A stretch of DNA of 6,148 bases from Candidatus Auribacterota bacterium (GCA_023136205.1 JAGLRQ010000138.1:1-6148); one strand, 5' to 3'. Counted from the stretch's first letter, positions 1-6,148 are shown. Program-made: numbers and translations. Notes: a model not told the origin generated them from the sequence alone.

Positions 1-1055
1 CCAACCTTGTGCTGGATAGCCCCGGATATTCCGCAGGCAATATATATTTTAGGGCATACAGTTTTTCCTGTTTGCCCGACCTGATGAGAATAAGGAATCC
101 ATCCCGCATCCACAGCAGCCCTGCTGGCACCAACAGCCCCTCCAAGGGCCTTAGCCAGATTCTCAATCAAATGAAAATTCTCAGGGCCTTTTAGAGCCCT
201 GCCCCCGGAGACAATTATATCAGCTTCAGCCAGGTTCACCGTAGCTTCCAACTCCTCCACAACTTTTAAGACTTTTGTGCGGGCTTTTGTATCCCCTTCT
301 GAAACTTTTATCTTTACTATATCCCCTTTCCTTTTTTGATCAGGAACAAGCTCCTTCATAACCTTGTGCCTGACTGTAGCCATTTGAGGACGATAGTCTT
401 TACACAAAATTGTAGCCATTATATTTCCGCCAAACGCGGGCCTGGTCTGAAGAAGAAACCCTGTTTCTCCATCAATTGAAAGCTCTGTGCAATCGGCAGT
501 AAGGCCTGTCTTGACTTCAACAGCTACTCTCGGAATAAGCGCTCTTCCTATCGAGGTAGCTCCGGTAAGAACTATTTCAGGTTTTTTCTCATTGATTATT
601 TTGGTAAGGATTTTTGCGTACGCTTCGTCAATGTAATTTTCAAGGTTTTTATGTTCCGCTACAAAAACTGTATCAGCACCGTGCTCAACAAGCTTTTTTG
701 CTTCGTGATGGACATTGTTACCAATCAAAACAGCACAGAGCCTGCAATTCCTGTCATCGGCAAGTTTTCTGCCTGCGCCCAAAAGCTCATAAGAAACCCC
801 CTGGATTTTACCTTTTTTCTGTTCGGCAACTATCCAGACATCTTTATATGACGACAGATCTTTAGTAGCGCCTTCATGATGTACCCTCATAATAATCGCA
901 TCAAATTTACATGCTTCAACGCATGCCCCGCAAAGAGTACATTTTTCTTCAATGATGACCGCAACCTTGTCACGCATTTCTATTGCGCCGAAAGGGCACG
1001 AACCAACACAGAGTTTACACCCTACACATTTTTCCAGTTCAATCTCTATTCCCAT
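1..1055 (-). CDS. etfA: Electron transfer flavoprotein alpha subunit (EtfA) fused to an N-terminal 2x[4Fe-4S] ferredoxin domain; 3' end runs off the window
   Basis: The minus-strand frame is open from the ATG at 1055..1053 to the window edge. I checked all 351 codons and found no stop, which explains why it is absent from the start-to-stop ORF track. An in-frame TAA at 1068..1070 fixes the start. The translation begins MGIEIELEKCVGCKLCVGSCPFGAIEMRDKVAVIIEEKCTLCGACVEACKFDAII. It continues through ...KDVWIVAEQKKGKIQGVSYELLGAG...RPAFGGNIMATILCKDYRPQMATVRH...AVGASRAAVDAGWIPYSHQVGQTGKTVCPKIYIACGISGAIQHKV. The last stretch matches the EtfA FAD-binding signature (IY-I/V-A-x-GISG-x-IQH). Confidence 0.92.
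   Translation of the reverse strand, partial: MGIEIELEKCVGCKLCVGSCPFGAIEMRDKVAVIIEEKCTLCGACVEACKFDAIIMRVHHEGATKDLSSYKDVWIVAEQKKGKIQGVSYELLGAGRKLADDRNCRLCAVLIGNNVHHEAKKLVEHGADTVFVAEHKNLENYIDEAYAKILTKIINEKKPEIVLTGATSIGRALIPRVAVEVKTGLTADCTELSIDGETGFLLQTRPAFGGNIMATILCKDYRPQMATVRHKVMKELVPDQKRKGDIVKIKVSEGDTKARTKVLKVVEELEATVNLAEADIIVSGGRALKGPENFHLIENLAKALGGAVGASRAAVDAGWIPYSHQVGQTGKTVCPKIYIACGISGAIQHKV
882..1055 (-). other. Ferredoxin-like domain with two 4Fe-4S cluster-binding motifs, at the N-terminus of EtfA
   Basis: There are two complete CxxCxxCxxxC motifs. The first is C10-VG-C13-KL-C16-VGS-C20-P (codons 1028..996). The second is C39-TL-C42-GA-C45-VEA-C49 (codons 941..909). The spacing is typical of a bacterial 2x[4Fe-4S] ferredoxin. 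A short linker (HHEGATKDLSSYKD) follows before the Etf fold starts. Confidence 0.88.
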
Positions 1056-1070
1056 TCTTAATGCCTTTTA

Positions 1071-1850
1071 TTATACAAAGCCGTTCTGTATTTCATTCAT
1101 AAGCTCTGCGACAACTTCATCCGCGGTACCTTTAAAAATTTTGCCGCCCTCTTTTTTAGGCGGGGTAAAAATTTTCATAACCCATGTCGGAGAACCATCA
1201 AGGCCCACCTTGCCGGTATCAATCTTTAAATCTTCGGTGGTTATAATCTTTATTTCCGACTTCTTTGCCTTCATCTTTCCTTTAAGAGAAGGCAGCCTGG
1301 GTTCATTTATTTCTTTCACAACGGTCAAAAGGACAGGCAAAGTTGACTCAACAACCTCATATCCTTCTTCCACCATTCTTTCGGATACAATTTTGCCATT
1401 CTCAATTTTTTCAATTTTCTTTACATATGTTATCTGTGGTATATCCAGATGAGTTGCAATACCCGGGCCTACCTGGGCCGTGTCACCGTCAATAGCCTGT
1501 TTGCCGCATATAATTATGTCATAACCTATTTTTTTAAGCCCTTCGGAAAGAGCAAAGGATGTAGCCAGCGTATCCGAACCCGCAAAAGCCCTGTCACTCA
1601 GAAGTACCGCTTCATCAACGCCAAGTGATATAGCTTCCCTCAGAGCCGCTTCCACCTGGGGAGGCCCCATGCTTATCACGGTAACTTTACCGCCGTACTT
1701 TTCCTTTATTCTTACGCCTTCTTCAATAGCATACATATCAAAAGGATTAATGATACTCGCAACCCCTTCCCTTACCAGAGTATTGGTCTCAGGGTCTATT
1801 CGTATATCGGTAGTATCGGGAACCTGTTTTATGCAGATAACGATATCCAC
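1071..1850 (-). CDS. etfB: Electron transfer flavoprotein beta subunit (EtfB), resembling the clostridial bifurcating type
   Basis: This is a 259-aa ORF starting MDIVICIKQVPDTTDIRIDPETNTLVREGVASIINPFD, a canonical EtfB N-terminus. It also contains VISMGPPQ and GKQAIDGDTAQVGP. The start codon is GTG (plus-strand cac at 1848..1850). AAGGAG at 1866..1861 lies 10 nt upstream. The start overlaps the upstream ACAD stop codon by 1 nt. Confidence 0.93.
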   Translation of the reverse strand: MDIVICIKQVPDTTDIRIDPETNTLVREGVASIINPFDMYAIEEGVRIKEKYGGKVTVISMGPPQVEAALREAISLGVDEAVLLSDRAFAGSDTLATSFALSEGLKKIGYDIIICGKQAIDGDTAQVGPGIATHLDIPQITYVKKIEKIENGKIVSERMVEEGYEVVESTLPVLLTVVKEINEPRLPSLKGKMKAKKSEIKIITTEDLKIDTGKVGLDGSPTWVMKIFTPPKKEGGKIFKGTADEVVAELMNEIQNGFV

Positions 1851-3004
1851 TAAATTGAAGCTCCTTCTTTAATAATATTCATCGCGATAATTCCCCGCTG
1901 AATCTGATTGGTCCCTTCATAAATCTGTGTTATCTTCGCGTCTCTCATCATTTTTTCAACGGGATATTCTTTCATATAACCGCTGCCGCCCATGATCTGG
2001 ACAGCGTCTGTGGTAACTTCCATGGCTGTATCAGACGCAAACATTTTTGCCATGGCTGATATTTTTGCTACATTCTTATCACCGGAATCAACATCTCTGG
2101 CCGACTGGTATACCAGTGTTCTTGCCGCTTCAATCTTTGTAGCCATGTCAGCCAGCATAAACTGGATTCCCTGGAAAGAAGCAATCGGTTTTTCGAATTG
2201 AACCCGTTCTCTCGCGAATTTCACAGCTTCTTCAAAGGCTCCCTGTGCAATACCAAGAGCCTGGGCTCCAACACCGGGCCTGGATTTATCAAACGTTTTC
2301 ATGGAAACCATAAAACCCGCGCCTTTGCGCCCAAGCATGTTTTCCTTAGGCACTTTACAGTCCTCAAATACCAGTTCGCTTGTCACCGACGCCCTGATTC
2401 CCATTTTATCTTCTTTCTTTCCAAAGGAAAATCCTTTCGTTCCTTTTTCAACAATAAACGCCGAAAGGCCCCTGGCCCCTTTCGCTTTGTTTGTAGCAGC
2501 TATGATAGAGTATATTTCAGCTTCCCCACCATTTGTTATCCATTGTTTTGTCCCGTTTAACACATAATAATCTCCGTCTTCAACAGCAGTTGTCTGAATT
2601 CCACCCACATCGCTTCCCGCGTTGGATTCAGTAAGGCCAAAAGCCGTGAGTTTTTTACCGGCAGCTATATCCGGAAGGTATTTTTTTTTCTGTTCGGCAG
2701 TTCCATATAAAAGAAGAGGATAGGTTCCCAGGCCGGTTGCCGCAAATGCAAGAGCAATACCACCACAGTATTTGCTTAAGGTCTCTGTAGCTATGCACAT
2801 CTCTAAACATCCGCCGCCCATACCGCCGTATTCTTCAGGCAGATAGACACGGAATATATCAGATTCAGACAATATCTTTACTATATCCCAGGGAAACTCC
2901 CCTGTTTTATCATACTCAGCTCTTACTGGGACAATTTTTTCCTTGCCGATTTTATCGCATATTTCCCGTATCATCAATTGTTCTTCAGTAAATTCGTAAT
3001 TCAT
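1850..3004 (-). CDS. Acyl-CoA dehydrogenase, short-chain/butyryl-CoA dehydrogenase (Bcd)-like flavoprotein
   Basis: The ORF-track product is 388 aa from the ATG at 3016. I place the start at the second ATG (3004), because GGAGG at 3014..3010 lies 5 nt upstream of it and Bcd-type proteins begin M-x-F/Y-x-(L/F)-T-x-EQ, here MNYEFTEEQ. ACAD hallmarks are FGLTESNAGSD, KQWITNGG, GIRASVTSELVFEDCKVP and a C-terminal KITQIYEGTNQIQ. The catalytic base Glu sits in the MCAD/SCAD position (codon 1918..1916). Confidence 0.9.
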   Translation of the reverse strand: MNYEFTEEQLMIREICDKIGKEKIVPVRAEYDKTGEFPWDIVKILSESDIFRVYLPEEYGGMGGGCLEMCIATETLSKYCGGIALAFAATGLGTYPLLLYGTAEQKKKYLPDIAAGKKLTAFGLTESNAGSDVGGIQTTAVEDGDYYVLNGTKQWITNGGEAEIYSIIAATNKAKGARGLSAFIVEKGTKGFSFGKKEDKMGIRASVTSELVFEDCKVPKENMLGRKGAGFMVSMKTFDKSRPGVGAQALGIAQGAFEEAVKFARERVQFEKPIASFQGIQFMLADMATKIEAARTLVYQSARDVDSGDKNVAKISAMAKMFASDTAMEVTTDAVQIMGGSGYMKEYPVEKMMRDAKITQIYEGTNQIQRGIIAMNIIKEGASI

Positions 3005-3009
3005 AACGT

Positions 3010-3014
3010 CCTCC
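3010..3014 (-). promoter_or_regulatory. Shine-Dalgarno sequence (GGAGG) for the ACAD gene
   Basis: The plus strand reads cctcc at 3010..3014, which is GGAGG on the coding strand. A 5-nt spacer (ACGTT) separates it from the ATG at 3004. Confidence 0.7.
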
Positions 3015-3021
3015 ATAGAAA

Positions 3022-3077
3022 AAGTTATTAGGTTATTGAGTTATTAGACAACCAATAACTTAGCAACCTAATAACCT
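3022..3077. repeat. Imperfect dyad built from phased 8-bp GTTATT units (three direct plus three inverted); on the transcript it forms a long AU-rich hairpin followed by UUUUUC
   Basis: The plus strand at 3024..3075 reads GTTATTAG GTTATTGA GTTATTAG acaa CCAATAAC TTAGCAAC CTAATAAC. The outer units (3024..3034 and 3065..3075) are an 11/11 perfect inverted repeat. The inner AGTTATT/AATAACT pair is 7/7, and the middle units match 5/8. In the minus-sense RNA the stem is followed by UUUUUC (3023..3018), then directly by the ACAD Shine-Dalgarno sequence. Confidence 0.8.
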
Positions 3078-3081
3078 GTAT

Positions 3082-4326
3082 TTATCCTTCAAATTTCTTA
3101 ACAGCCAGAGTGGCATTGTGCCCGCCAAATCCCAAGGAATTTGAGAGAACTGCCTTTACTTCAACTTTCCTCGCCTCATTAGGAACATAATCAAGATCAC
3201 AGTCGGGATCCGGGGTTTCGTAATTTATCGTAGGAGGGATAATCCCATGTTTAATAGTCATTGCGGTCGCAATTAATTCGGCGGCACCCGCCGCTCCAAG
3301 TAAATGTCCCGTCATTGATTTTGTGGAGCTTACGGCAAGTTTTTTTACATGATCACCAAATACAGCTTTAATCGCCGCGGTTTCACATTTGTCATTTAAT
3401 TTTGTAGATGTCCCGTGAGCGTTTATATAATCATAGTCGTCCTTATTAATTCCGGATTTTACAATTGCCATTTCCATCGCGCGGGCGGCGCCTTCACCGT
3501 TTGGCGTCGGAGCCGTGATGTGATGCGCATCCCCGGAAAGCCCGTATCCTACCATTTCACAGTAAATTTCAGCGTTTCTTTTTTTAGCATGTTCCAGTTC
3601 TTCAAGAAGAAGAATCCCTGCTCCCTCTGACATTACAAAACCATCTCTATCTTTGTCAAAAGGCCTGCTTGCTTTCTCCGGTTCGTTATTCCGAGTTGAA
3701 AGAGCCCTCATAGCGCAGAAGCCGCCGAAGCCTAATACCGTCAGAGCTCCTTCACTTCCACCTGCCAGCATGGCATCAGCATCACCATCCCTGATTACTT
3801 TCCATGCCTCGCCCAGTGAATGAGCGGCGCTTGCGCAGGCTGTTACCACACACATGTTGGGGCCCTTGGCCCCGACAGCAATAGATACATGTCCCGCGGC
3901 AATGTTTGTAATCAGTTTTGGAATGAGGTGAGGAGACATCCTCTTAGGGCCTTTCTCAACAAAAATCGTATGTTGTTCCTGCATTGTTTTTATGCCGCCA
4001 ATGCCTGACCCCGTATAAACACCAACCCTGTTAGGATCGGCTTTATTCATGTCAAATTCGGCATCTTCCATAGCCATTTTCGCGGCAGCAACGGCATAAA
4101 GAACAAATTTTTCCATTTTCCTTGATTCCCGTGGTTCTACATATCTCGCAGAGTCAAAGTTTTTTATTTCGCCCCCTATATGGGAATTGAATTCCGCGGG
4201 ATCAAAATATGTGAGACGGGCAATACCGCTTTTTCCTTTCAGAAGAGCATCCCAGTATTCTTTAAGATTATTACCGTTCGGAGCAATAACACCAAGGCCT
4301 GTAATTACAACACGCTTGTGATTCAT
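3082..4326 (-). CDS. fabF: 3-oxoacyl-[acyl-carrier-protein] synthase II (KAS II)
   Basis: This is a 414-aa ORF of the KAS I/II family. The active-site Cys is in VVTACASAAHSLGEA (C164). The catalytic His residues are in NAHGTSTKLND and MTGHLLGAAGA. The C-terminus has NSLGFGGHN. The gene sits immediately downstream of acpP, as in canonical fab operons. A GAGG lies about 12 nt upstream of the ATG. Confidence 0.95.
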   Translation of the reverse strand: MNHKRVVITGLGVIAPNGNNLKEYWDALLKGKSGIARLTYFDPAEFNSHIGGEIKNFDSARYVEPRESRKMEKFVLYAVAAAKMAMEDAEFDMNKADPNRVGVYTGSGIGGIKTMQEQHTIFVEKGPKRMSPHLIPKLITNIAAGHVSIAVGAKGPNMCVVTACASAAHSLGEAWKVIRDGDADAMLAGGSEGALTVLGFGGFCAMRALSTRNNEPEKASRPFDKDRDGFVMSEGAGILLLEELEHAKKRNAEIYCEMVGYGLSGDAHHITAPTPNGEGAARAMEMAIVKSGINKDDYDYINAHGTSTKLNDKCETAAIKAVFGDHVKKLAVSSTKSMTGHLLGAAGAAELIATAMTIKHGIIPPTINYETPDPDCDLDYVPNEARKVEVKAVLSNSLGFGGHNATLAVKKFEG

Positions 4327-4350: not shown

Positions 4351-4396
4351 AGGGCATCTCAAGTTCGTAATGTAAAGGAACGAACTGAAATGCCCT
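4351..4396 (-). promoter_or_regulatory. Stem-loop in the acpP-fabF spacer (possible partial terminator, attenuator or mRNA-stabilising hairpin)
   Basis: AGGGCAT (4351..4357) pairs with ATGCCCT (4390..4396), 7/7. The inner AGTTCG (4362..4367) pairs with CGAACT (4381..4386), 6/6. A small internal loop separates the two stems. On the transcript the hairpin is followed by GUUAUUACGAGG, which is only a weak U-tract. Confidence 0.45.
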
Positions 4397-4412: not shown

Positions 4413-4649
4413 TTATTTCTGGTGACCCTCTATATATGTTACAACATCACCGACTTTTTTTAGTTTTTCCGCTTCTTCGTCAGGTATATCAGCATTGAAT
4501 TCTTCTTCCAAAGCCATAACGAGCTCAACGGTATCAAGCGAGTCAGCCCCGAGATCATCCATAAAAGACGAATCATTTGTTACTTCCTCGGCGTTAACAC
4601 CAAGTTGTTCAACAATAATTTTTTTTACTCTCTCCGCGACTGATGACAT
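4413..4649 (-). CDS. acpP: Acyl carrier protein
   Basis: This 78-aa acidic protein contains [19 protein letters not shown], including the DSL phosphopantetheine-attachment serine (S37). It lies between fabG and fabF. A strong Shine-Dalgarno sequence is present upstream. Confidence 0.96.
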
Positions 4650-4693: not shown

Positions 4694-5437
4694 TTATGCC
4701 ATTACCATTCCACCATCAACTACAATAACCTGGCCGGTCATATATGATGAAAGTTCAGATGATAAAAACAATGCGGCGTTTGCTACATCTTCCGGCTTCC
4801 CTAAAGTATTAAGTGGAATAGCTTTTAACATCTGCTGTTTTACTTCATCTGAAAGAACATCTGTCATTTTCGTTTGAATAAATCCAGGTGCTATGGCATT
4901 TACATTAATACCCCTGGATGCCAATTCACGGGCACCTGTTTTTGTTAGGGCTATAACACCCGCCTTGGACGCGGCGTAATTCGCCTGCCCGGCATTTCCC
5001 ACAATACCGATTATGCTGGCAATGTTAATTATTCTGCCCGAACGCTGCTTCATCATAGGGCGGCTTATTGCCCGCATAAAATTAAAAACGCCCTTAAGAT
5101 TAACGCTGATAACCGTGTCCCAGTCTTTATCTTTCATACGCACCAACAAAGTATCTCTCGTCAGTCCAGCATTGTTAACGAGTATATCTATTTTACCTGT
5201 GTTGTCAAGAATTTTGTTAACAGTTTCATCGACGTTTGCCGTATTTGACACATCACACTTACAGCAAAACGTCTTTTGCCCCATTGCTTCGATTTCCGAA
5301 GCCGCGGATTTTATAGTTTCTTCAACCACATCGCACAATGCTATGTCGGCCCCTTCAGAAGCCAGTTTGAGAGCTATTGCTTTCCCTATACCCTGGCCGG
5401 AACCTGTAACTAAAGCAGTTTTTCCTTTAAGCAGCAT
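4694..5437 (-). CDS. fabG: 3-oxoacyl-[acyl-carrier-protein] reductase (classical SDR)
   Basis: This 247-aa ORF has the classical SDR motifs: TGSGQGIG (Gly-rich loop), NNAG, and the catalytic Ser...YAASKAG (YxxxK). Its length and its position between fabD and acpP are typical of FabG. Confidence 0.9.
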   Translation of the reverse strand: MLLKGKTALVTGSGQGIGKAIALKLASEGADIALCDVVEETIKSAASEIEAMGQKTFCCKCDVSNTANVDETVNKILDNTGKIDILVNNAGLTRDTLLVRMKDKDWDTVISVNLKGVFNFMRAISRPMMKQRSGRIINIASIIGIVGNAGQANYAASKAGVIALTKTGARELASRGINVNAIAPGFIQTKMTDVLSDEVKQQMLKAIPLNTLGKPEDVANAALFLSSELSSYMTGQVIVVDGGMVMA

Positions 5438-5450: not shown

Positions 5451-6148
5451 TTACTGAACCAAAGATTTTAATGTTTCAAGGCTTTTATTATTTTCCACGA
5501 CACAGCATTTTTTGCCGGAATCAATTCTTTTTAAAAGGCCTGTTAAAACTTTCCCGCAGCCAGGCTCAACAAACAGATTAATACCATTCTCTATCATAGA
5601 TTCAACACATTTTTGCCATAGCACCGGACTGGTTACCTGGGTTGCCAGAAGCGCCCTGATATCAGATTTTTCATTATAAAAACTACCTGACACGTTGCAT
5701 GTTATTTTCATCACAGGTGAAGCTAATTCAACTTTGTTAAGTTCACCAACAAGTTTTTCTTCCGCTTCACGCATTAATGATGAATGATATGCTCCTGCCA
5801 CTTTAATCTCTATTGCTCTTTTAATACCCGCTTCTTTTGCTATTTCAATAGCTTTTAAAACAGCCGGGCGGCTTCCGGAAATTACAACCTGCCCGGGAGA
5901 ATTTATATTGGCCACTCCTATCTCTCCTGTCTCTCCCGCAACTTTTTCAACAATCTCCCTTGCCGTTTTTTCATCCGAGCCTAATAAGGAGGCCATCGTC
6001 CCTTCATTCTTTTCACAGGCCTCCTGCATAAGAGAACCCCTCTTATATACAAGAGAAACAGCATCTTCGAACTTAAGTGCTCCCGCGCAAACCAGCGCGG
6101 AATATTCCCCGAGGCTTAACCCCCCGCACATTACCGGTTTAATCCTAA
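5451..6148 (-). CDS. fabD: Malonyl CoA-acyl carrier protein transacylase; 5' end lies beyond the window
   Basis: The frame stays open upstream of the track's ATG (6131) to the window edge (...RIKPVMCGGLSLGEYSALVCAGAL). Motifs include the GxSxG nucleophile elbow plus EYSALV, then KRGSLMQEA, NSPGQVVISG, AGAYHSSLM (catalytic His) and VEPGCGKVLTGLLKRI. These align along the length of E. coli FabD from its GHSLGEY motif onward. About 90 N-terminal residues are missing. Confidence 0.93.
   Translation of the reverse strand, partial: RIKPVMCGGLSLGEYSALVCAGALKFEDAVSLVYKRGSLMQEACEKNEGTMASLLGSDEKTAREIVEKVAGETGEIGVANINSPGQVVISGSRPAVLKAIEIAKEAGIKRAIEIKVAGAYHSSLMREAEEKLVGELNKVELASPVMKITCNVSGSFYNEKSDIRALLATQVTSPVLWQKCVESMIENGINLFVEPGCGKVLTGLLKRIDSGKKCCVVENNKSLETLKSLVQ

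Follow-up and report, generated by a model that had tools for sequence, protein, structure and literature searches.

The 6,148-nt stretch of DNA analysed here (GCA_023136205.1 JAGLRQ010000138.1:1-6148; referred to over its whole length as the window) originates from a Candidatus Auribacterota bacterium and harbours, between fabF and the acyl-CoA dehydrogenase gene (ACAD, acd), a 52-nt palindrome built from phased octamers. The locus raises the question of whether this dyad controls the expression of the acd-etf (Bcd/Etf) module relative to the preceding fatty-acid synthase (FAS, fab) genes, as had been claimed in an earlier note drawn up from the same sequence. The reading favoured here, albeit tentatively, is that of a palindrome derived from a simple-sequence repeat (SSR), fixed in one species and acting as a leaky, borderline intrinsic terminator or attenuator, or as a pause site. 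Judged from comparison with related genomes, the dyad is not a conserved regulator of the link between FAS and Bcd/Etf. It joins two known kinds of elements, namely intercistronic terminator-like hairpins and prokaryotic simple-sequence repeats.

The palindrome and its place in the operon

The dyad covers positions 3024-3075 of the window and consists of three GTTATTRR octamers and their three mirrored counterparts on either side of a 4-nt centre, which read on the + strand GTTATTAG GTTATTGA GTTATTAG ACAA CCAATAAC TTAGCAAC CTAATAAC. This is exactly the arrangement described in the earlier note, as is the symmetry at 3049/3050 with outer arms matching at 11/11 positions (3024-3034 versus 3065-3075) and inner arms at 7-8/8; the span of 3017-3081 given there was slightly wide, the element proper comprising 3018-3075. 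The octamers, as read from the sequence, and the features of the mRNA strand are:

3024-3031, + strand: octamer GTTATTAG
3032-3039, + strand: octamer GTTATTGA
3040-3047, + strand: octamer GTTATTAG, second copy
3048-3051, + strand: centre ACAA, forming the 4-nt loop UUGU in the mRNA
3052-3059, + strand: mirrored octamer CCAATAAC
3060-3067, + strand: mirrored octamer TTAGCAAC
3068-3075, + strand: mirrored octamer CTAATAAC
3052..3075, - strand: 5' arm of the hairpin, three octamers GUUAUUAG GUUGCUAA GUUAUUGG, the middle one degenerate; as one mRNA string GUUAUUAGGUUGCUAAGUUAUUGG
3024..3047, - strand: 3' arm of the hairpin, three octamers CUAAUAAC UCAAUAAC CUAAUAAC; as one mRNA string CUAAUAACUCAAUAACCUAAUAAC
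3018..3023, - strand: U-run UUUUUC, directly 3' of the stem
3010..3014, - strand: Shine-Dalgarno sequence GGAGG of the acyl-CoA dehydrogenase gene, outside the hairpin

On the mRNA, the fabF stop codon UAA (3084-3082) is followed by AUACAG (6 nt), the 52-nt dyad, UUUUUC (3023-3018), UAU, GGAGG, ACGUU and the AUG of acd (3004-3002). The dyad fills the 77-nt spacer, beginning 6 nt past the fabF stop and ending 19 nt before the acd start, which confirms the geometry previously noted, including the 3 nt between U-tract and Shine-Dalgarno sequence. The acd start used is that of the gene callers (ATG at 3004) and differs from the ATG at 3016 in the open reading frame listing.

The sense (minus) strand folds with -24.7 kcal/mol in a 101-nt context (z = -3.55; 1/200 shuffles as good) and with z = -3.83 in a 96-nt context (0/200 shuffles as good). 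The structure comprises 12 outer pairs, a 3x3 internal loop, 9 inner pairs and a tetraloop, i.e. an AU-rich stem of 21-24 bp with about 5 G-C among 21 pairs. As in intrinsic terminators, the transcribed strand thus forms a stable stem-loop (dG about -21 to -25, z -3.6 to -3.8), and a U-tract, UUUUUCUAU, adjoins the stem, within the 0-2 nt usual for such tracts; the AU-rich imperfect hairpin followed by UUUUUC that had been predicted was therefore recovered. Two U of UUUUUC are able to lengthen the stem by pairing with the upstream AG in the minimum free energy structure. The + strand is of comparable folding stability (-21.7, z = -5.1), and for the dyad alone -21.4 kcal/mol (sense) compare with -20.5 kcal/mol (antisense). 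No covariation was measurable, every copy of the spacer being identical. Rfam covariance models at gathering thresholds yielded no match to the element, and at E <= 10 only generic hairpin matches were obtained, the best with 20.7 bits versus a cut-off of 80. The suggestion that the element occludes or exposes the adjacent ribosome-binding site was not borne out: the dyad pairs with itself, GGAGG and AUG are located outside the stem, and in a 126-nt context the Shine-Dalgarno bases are 37-68 % and the AUG 76-79 % unpaired.

The repetitive nature of the arms is evident from several searches. Inverted repeat detection delineated arms at 3024-3045 and 3054-3075 (22 nt, 86 % complementary), unmatched in length by any other close inverted repeat within the 21 kb of source-contig sequence. 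All three copies of GTTATTAG in the 6,148-nt window reside within the dyad (expected 0.19; 0/200 shuffles reach 3), as do 5 of the 12 copies of GTTATT (4.5 expected in the window). Tandem Repeats Finder called a period of 8 for the 3' arm region (2.9 copies, 80 % matches) and additionally a period of 16. With three octamers per arm, the dyad conforms to the head-to-tail 5-11 nt units of simple repeats; the array is short and may fall under the "longer than expected" threshold for long simple-sequence repeats (LSSR). No second copy or other array was found in the 21 kb of the source contig, in related loci or in about 65 kb of Auribacterota sequence, and no Auribacterota locus occurs among the 240 array stretches listed from genome and metagenome scans.

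The genes surrounding the dyad in the window are:

5451-6131, - strand: fabD, partial
4694-5437, - strand: fabG
4413-4649, - strand: acpP
3082..4326, - strand: fabF, beta-ketoacyl-ACP synthase II, 414 aa, stop codon UAA at 3084-3082
1850..3004, - strand: acyl-CoA dehydrogenase (ACAD, acd), 384 aa, ATG at 3004
1071-1850, - strand: etfB, with ferredoxin-fused etfA beyond

They belong to a neighbourhood with the order recG-rsmD-coaD-(PTA_PTB)-yceD-rpmF-plsX-fabH-fabD-fabG-acpP-fabF-ACAD-etfB-etfA(ferredoxin-fused)-smc, in which all genes are co-directional and separated by short spacers. Five public contigs code for an identical FabF protein, among them a 538-kb ENA scaffold and the metagenome-assembled genome (MAG) GCA_030639325.1 at NCBI. 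The nearest ACAD homologues are labelled Candidatus Aureabacteria, now phylum Candidatus Auribacterota of the PVC group.

On the sense strand, a scan for sigma-70-like promoters detected none in the spacer up to the acd start or in the final 300 nt of fabF, in agreement with the failure of the earlier note to find a good -35/-10 pair. As no promoter is detectable after fabF, acd-etf expression would have to come from read-through, and with all genes co-directional the palindrome is transcribed within a polycistronic mRNA.

From this arrangement we infer the following scheme. A short period-8 repeat, (GTTATTRR)3, together with an inverted copy of itself, would have given rise to a young, species-level palindrome that took the place of an earlier fabF-acd spacer. 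In the polycistronic fab-acd-etf mRNA, it would fold into the AU-rich hairpin followed by UUUUUC and cause weak, leaky intrinsic termination or pausing, with a protected 3' end of the fab transcript as a by-product. The output of acd-etf would be lowered relative to the fab genes, with read-through as its supply route. In Escherichia coli rph-pyrE, a ribosome terminating near the attenuator stem favours read-through. Because the stem is so near the stop codon here, the ribosome finishing fabF would likewise mask the beginning of the 5' arm and promote read-through. Attenuators of the rph-pyrE type share with the dyad a hairpin plus U-run just past the upstream stop, downstream genes in need of read-through and a stop codon near enough (6 nt here) for the ribosome to hinder the stem; the dyad differs in being limited to one species-level lineage and in having no evident regulatory input.

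Several side observations concern the gene cluster itself. ACAD, etfB and the ferredoxin-domain-fused etfA directly follow fabF, in the usual place of rnc, and directly precede smc (window 1-3004; L001:11323-14471). A TA06 genome (L143) has the order fabH-fabD-x-fabG-acpP-fabF-rnc-ACAD; taken together, the two orders indicate that linkage of this ACAD clade to the fab cluster recurs across phyla. The gene of the distant ACAD homologue P0011 is not adjacent to fabF. The 21-kb neighbourhood revealed no fabI, fabK or fabZ. For the window lineage, the gene calls give fabD 335 aa and a 50-nt overlap with fabH (window 5451-6131; L001:6929-8876), compared to 309-310 aa and separation from fabH in L014 and L006; the start is probably over-extended in the calls for the window lineage.

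Terminator features and spacer turnover

An FMN riboswitch, conserved in L014, was identified upstream of ribBA (Rfam RF00050, 112.6 bits, L001:20053-20223) and has a canonical terminator, GCUCUGAAGAAUUUUUCAGAGC followed by U7; the lineage accordingly uses classical hairpin-plus-U intrinsic termination. The U-tract of the dyad has a T-weight of 4.18, compared to 4.0-5.0 for this same-genome terminator.

A number of observations nevertheless weigh against termination at the dyad, concerning the hairpin itself and, as detailed further below, its distribution. Intrinsic terminators possess a compact GC-rich stem of about 5-14 bp, whereas the dyad forms 21-24 AU-rich pairs interrupted by a 3x3 internal loop, and its U-run contains only 5 U. 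A terminator consensus scan, which demands at least 3 G-C pairs, an uninterrupted stem and a loop of 3-8 nt, does not flag the element. The d'Aubenton-Carafa-type score, calculated with modern energy parameters, amounts to -1.3 (threshold 0); by the same formula, the FMN terminator scores +5.8 to +20.9 and a hairpin in the acpP-fabF spacer -26.7. Furthermore, a non-sigma-70 promoter may be present inside fabF. Given such borderline features, any termination would be partial, and as acd-etf have no other evident transcript source, partial termination would fit the need of the operon. The leaky terminator or attenuator setting the fab to acd-etf ratio, one of three options in the earlier note, thus persists as the best remaining reading, qualified by computed scores that place the hairpin at the border of terminators.

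The distribution of the dyad among relatives adds to these counterpoints. Two sister lineages share the gene order of the window, one (L014/L015) with 98 % ACAD protein identity and about 5-6 % diverged flanking DNA, the other (L006-L013, L265) with 89 % ACAD protein identity. The GTTATT dyad is absent from the fabF-ACAD spacers of both (L014/L015; L006/L265), which measure 87 nt and 99-108 nt, respectively, and can be aligned to the window spacer and to each other only at the Shine-Dalgarno region. Three related lineages hence carry three unrelated spacers at this position. Other spacers of L001 and L014 do align (fabG-acpP 42/45, acpP-fabF 80/87, yceD-rpmF 20/22). On these alignments, the dyad has replaced the spacer in one lineage only, at a position where spacers turn over rapidly. 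Being missing in sisters with identical gene order, it constitutes no essential or ancient control point, and the claim that it decides whether Bcd/Etf is expressed with the FAS genes is not supported; absence from orthologous loci of the same gene order was the very outcome named beforehand as speaking against a conserved switch.

Turnover is also apparent in other spacers (L001 vs L014, L138 comparison): etfB and etfA are separated by 15 nt versus 96 nt, etfA and smc by 136 nt versus 189 and 225 nt, and smc and the aminotransferase gene by 84 nt versus 31 nt, and a large indel distinguishes close lineages between asnC and ribBA. As far as these comparisons reach, spacer turnover is concentrated at the edges of the acd-etf module, the intra-fab spacers being stable by comparison. 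The fabF-ACAD spacer of the 89 % lineage contains a promoter-like TTTAAA-16-TATAAT (10/12; L006:9922-9949, part of L265:590-698), kept in both MAGs; no promoter of this type was found in the fabF-ACAD spacer of the window lineage or of L014. The 89 % lineage may thus transcribe acd-etf independently, unlike the window lineage. The aforementioned hairpin of the acpP-fabF spacer (window 4352-4395, minus strand; L001:9932-9975) comprises 16 pairs, GGGCAUUUCAGUUCGU...ACGAACUUGAGAUGCCC, and lacks a U-run. In contrast to the dyad, it is kept in L014 (with one U-A to U-G change), and its base GGGCAUU...AAUGCCC is kept even in L006 of the 89 % lineage.

At least 11 contigs of the species-level lineage (L001-L005, L136-L140, L264), from several samples and two independent NCBI MAGs, share one and the same 77-nt spacer, the copies sorting into roughly two haplotype groups and an intermediate. 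In the adjoining 3' end of fabF and the ACAD gene, 37 of 531 third-codon positions segregate (about 7 %), a rate that predicts 5.4 differences in the spacer versus 0 observed (P about 0.004 for the spacer, 0.02 for the 52-nt dyad by itself). Likewise, the three-unit arrays display zero length variation in the sampled population. The polymorphism-free gap across the spacer spans 173 nt, however, and others of 162 and 112 nt occur within the ACAD gene; moreover, the acpP-fabF spacer is equally invariant within the species. For these reasons, within-species invariance was downgraded to weak evidence and dropped as proof of selection, the gap being only modestly larger than others.

Octamer arrays in other genomes

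Genome contigs were scanned with the pattern GTTATTNNGTTATTNNGTTATT (loci L016-L135) and metagenome contigs with GTTATTAGGTTNNTNAGTTATT (L144-L263), at least 120 matches being listed for each; loci from L266 onward are viral contigs. Arrays of (GTTATTNN)n proved widespread, with at least 120 genome and at least 120 metagenome matches, and all frequencies given in the following for genome and metagenome arrays apply to the matches listed. Almost every match represents an array longer than the scan pattern required, with up to more than 15 units. Bacteroidota dominate, and further arrays occur in Patescibacteria, Nitrospinae, Elusimicrobia, Planctomycetota, Cloacimonadota, Omnitrophota, Firmicutes, Gammaproteobacteria, Cyanobacteria and one methanogen. 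Their location is intergenic in 304/314 cases.

Dyads, i.e. a direct followed by an inverted array within 60 nt, were found in 32/240 loci (about 13 %), for example in MAGs of Saprospiraceae (L016), Uhrbacteria (L062) and Nitrospinae (L083). L218 holds the exact 22-nt 5' arm of the window dyad, and in L158 variant units of one arm are mirrored in the other. Co-directional genes flank 22 of the 26 classifiable dyads. With a median of 4 nt past the upstream stop and 25 nt before the next start, the placement of the window dyad (6 and 19 nt) conforms to the class. A T-run is missing from most of these dyads, and among 22 subjected to folding the sense strand was the better in 8 and the worse in 13 (p = 0.52). 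Termination is consequently not a property of the dyad class, a further point counting against it in the window.

Single arrays are polar, the mRNA reading AATAAC at 45 loci versus GTTATT at 15 (p = 1.3e-4). AATAAC-sense arrays precede the next start by a median of 19-25 nt, and GTTATT-sense arrays follow the previous stop at a median distance of 16 nt. In a control with viral contigs, 4-unit arrays of GTTATT were found in 100 stretches, compared to 64 for GTATTT and 49 for GATTTT, two cores of the same composition (0.5-0.65 of GTTATT). Since control cores are nearly as frequent, the GTTATT unit is not special; together with the recurrence of phased dyads, this indicates that the 8-bp phasing reflects tandem-repeat origin rather than a protein-binding register. 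The mirror symmetry is a property at the DNA level, most simply an inverted copy of the array.

Other 7-8-mer arrays often adjoin GTTATT arrays. A distinct variant, (CGTTATTA/CGTTATTT)n, lies directly beside CAT (ATG on the opposite strand) in L023, L036, L041, L053, L054, L057, L058, L064, L079 and L099, which stem from Prevotella and other Bacteroidales. The downstream gene therefore has a (TAATAACG)n leader, no more than about 10 nt away from its start codon. A three-frame stop device was considered, as each AATAAC unit contains TAA and the period of 8 rotates the frame, which would account for the intergenic location of the arrays; this candidate was rejected because GTTATTGG units are devoid of stops.

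A literature search on the octamer sequences themselves retrieved nothing relevant. The only comparable arrays found are the intergenic TAACTGA heptamers of Beggiatoaceae, Cyanobacteria and Bacteroidetes (MacGregor 2015, PMC4679880), which were proposed as post-transcriptional regulator sites where directly upstream of start codons, their function being left open. The same study reported same-spacer absence in close relatives for Gramella and Aequorivita and, for the BOGUAY genome, a single indirect repeat in 170 sets; as summarised there, Mrazek 2007 described long simple-sequence repeats with 5-11 nt units in prokaryotes. With LSSR, the heptamers of cyanobacterial short tandemly repeated repetitive sequences and TAACTGA arrays, the dyad shares short head-to-tail intergenic repeats, patchy phylogeny and absence from the corresponding spacer of close relatives, so that by its intergenic place and by presence or absence between close relatives it belongs with the simple repeats. 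An orientation preference near the downstream start is common to both array types, and the unit TAAC-YY-AA resembles TAAC-TG-A. Different from the TAACTGA arrays are the octamer unit, the three copies per arm and the pairing with the array's own inverted copy into a hairpin.

The arrays could constitute an undescribed cross-phylum class of intercistronic elements with fixed polarity and a common post-transcriptional role, although this is considered quite unlikely. Arrays of such a class may read 5'-GTTATTRR-3' away from the nearby gene boundary, with sense-GTTATT after stops, sense-AATAAC before starts and dyads filling co-directional spacers. By analogy to the proposal for TAACTGA arrays, they could couple or uncouple the translation of adjacent cistrons or bind S1 or a cold-shock protein. 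As control octamers act similarly, a generic mutational phenomenon is likelier than a specific signal.

Alternative explanations and significance

As the main rival explanation, the dyad may be a neutral by-product, an expanded SSR copied in inverted orientation (e.g. by slippage and intrastrand template switching) within a tolerant spacer, with no selected function and at most an incidental effect on expression. This explanation, possible if still unlikely, accords with unrelated fabF-ACAD spacers in three lineages whose neighbouring spacers align at 91-95 %, with the cross-phylum commonness and intergenic location of period-8 arrays and dyads, with control octamer arrays nearly as common, and with a dyad class devoid of sense-strand preference and mostly of T-runs. 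It accords less well with 0 differences in 77 nt across haplotypes of 7 % third-position polymorphism and with the invariant array length, since an unconstrained slippage-prone repeat would vary; moreover, on physical grounds, RNA polymerase and RNases are unlikely to pass over a 21-24 bp hairpin plus U5 within an operon unaffected. RNase III substrates embrace stems of about 21-24 bp, and hairpins of the REP/BIME, ERIC and Correia type can act as exonuclease barriers or RNase III sites that lead to unequal operon expression. A processing or stability hairpin of this kind, serving as RNase III substrate or barrier to 3'-5' exonucleases and thereby splitting or differentially stabilizing the fab and acd-etf mRNA segments, is rather improbable for the window. 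The stem with its central internal loop exceeds typical terminators and suits RNase III in size, the placement is strictly intercistronic, and the acpP-fabF hairpin kept into the 89 % lineage indicates that the operon uses intercistronic structures; in addition, a 2025 study ties intergenic simple repeats to RNA structure and RNase III in Haemophilus (PMC12721329). The sister lineages, however, lack the dyad, and rnc is not at its usual post-fabF place here but is found between fabF and ACAD in the TA06 genome. REP/BIME, ERIC/IRU and Correia/nemis elements (E. coli, Yersinia, Neisseria) likewise are palindromes between co-transcribed genes that fold in the mRNA, yet they form conserved multi-copy families, some mobile with target duplications, whereas the arms of the dyad are simple repeats and a single copy was found. 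A role in translation is distinctly improbable: the A-rich 3' arm, (YYAAUAAC)3, would serve as ribosome standby site or S1-type leader of acd, sequestered by the 5' arm until a ribosome at the fabF stop unwinds the latter, frees the leader and ties acd to fabF translation. Array polarity and position rules elsewhere, the agreement of the window dyad with the class medians and the role proposed for TAACTGA arrays before starts (PMC4679880) argue in its favour. Against it stand the strong canonical GGAGG of acd outside the hairpin, the lack of a sense-strand pairing preference in the dyad class and the expectation that a terminating ribosome would open just the first few of 21-24 pairs; the polarity is, in our view, explicable by selection against TTG triplets and against purine runs resembling Shine-Dalgarno sequences where GTTATTRR-sense arrays are close to starts.

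Two further explanations act on DNA. The earlier note had regarded strict 8-bp phasing as unusual for a plain terminator and suggestive of an operator array for a multimeric transcription factor; such an array, or another DNA-level protein site controlling fab or acd-etf, is very improbable in spite of the perfect symmetry with both strands folding equally and of the repeated half-site. The element is not conserved in orthologous loci, no sigma-70-like promoter is available in or near the spacer to act on, no further copy was found in 21 kb or any related locus, and no regulator gene lies within +/-10 kb save an AsnC-type gene paired with an aminotransferase gene. In addition, steps of 8 bp place successive sites on different helix faces, and the phased architecture recurs in unrelated phyla and with other octamer units, in line with its tandem-repeat origin. 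Operators of FapR, FabT, FabR and FadR share the location at fab clusters and the dyad symmetry, whereas the dyad is neither placed at a promoter nor conserved, and no regulator gene lies close to it; in sequence, too, it presumably differs from them. Insertion of a miniature mobile palindrome, e.g. a MITE or a REP- or Correia-like element, would explain presence and absence between close lineages, which resembles insertion or replacement, as well as the palindromic, intercistronic nature of the dyad. It is scarcely likely, given flanks (ATACAG and TTTTTC) without target-site duplication, no second copy in about 65 kb of Auribacterota sequence, arms that are internally repetitive unlike a unique terminal inverted repeat, and sister sites that are not empty but occupied by unrelated sequence of similar length. 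Two specific identities were rejected. In the consensus of integron attC sites, RYYYAAC...GTTRRRY, AAC and GTT point inward, whereas the dyad has GTT and AAC at its outer ends and is flanked by housekeeping genes; a REP/RAYT-type element lacks support because the GTAG head is missing and no second copy was found.

If the hairpin does terminate or attenuate transcription, it would set how much of an acyl-CoA dehydrogenase/Etf module of electron-bifurcating type is produced relative to the fatty-acid synthase genes in one Auribacterota species, and would also illustrate how a simple repeat can give rise, in a single step, to a new control point within an operon. Its absence in the nearest relatives shows that this is not a general principle of fab regulation. 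The stereotyped placement of arrays and dyads between co-directional genes of many phyla is essentially undescribed and perhaps of more value than the single dyad.

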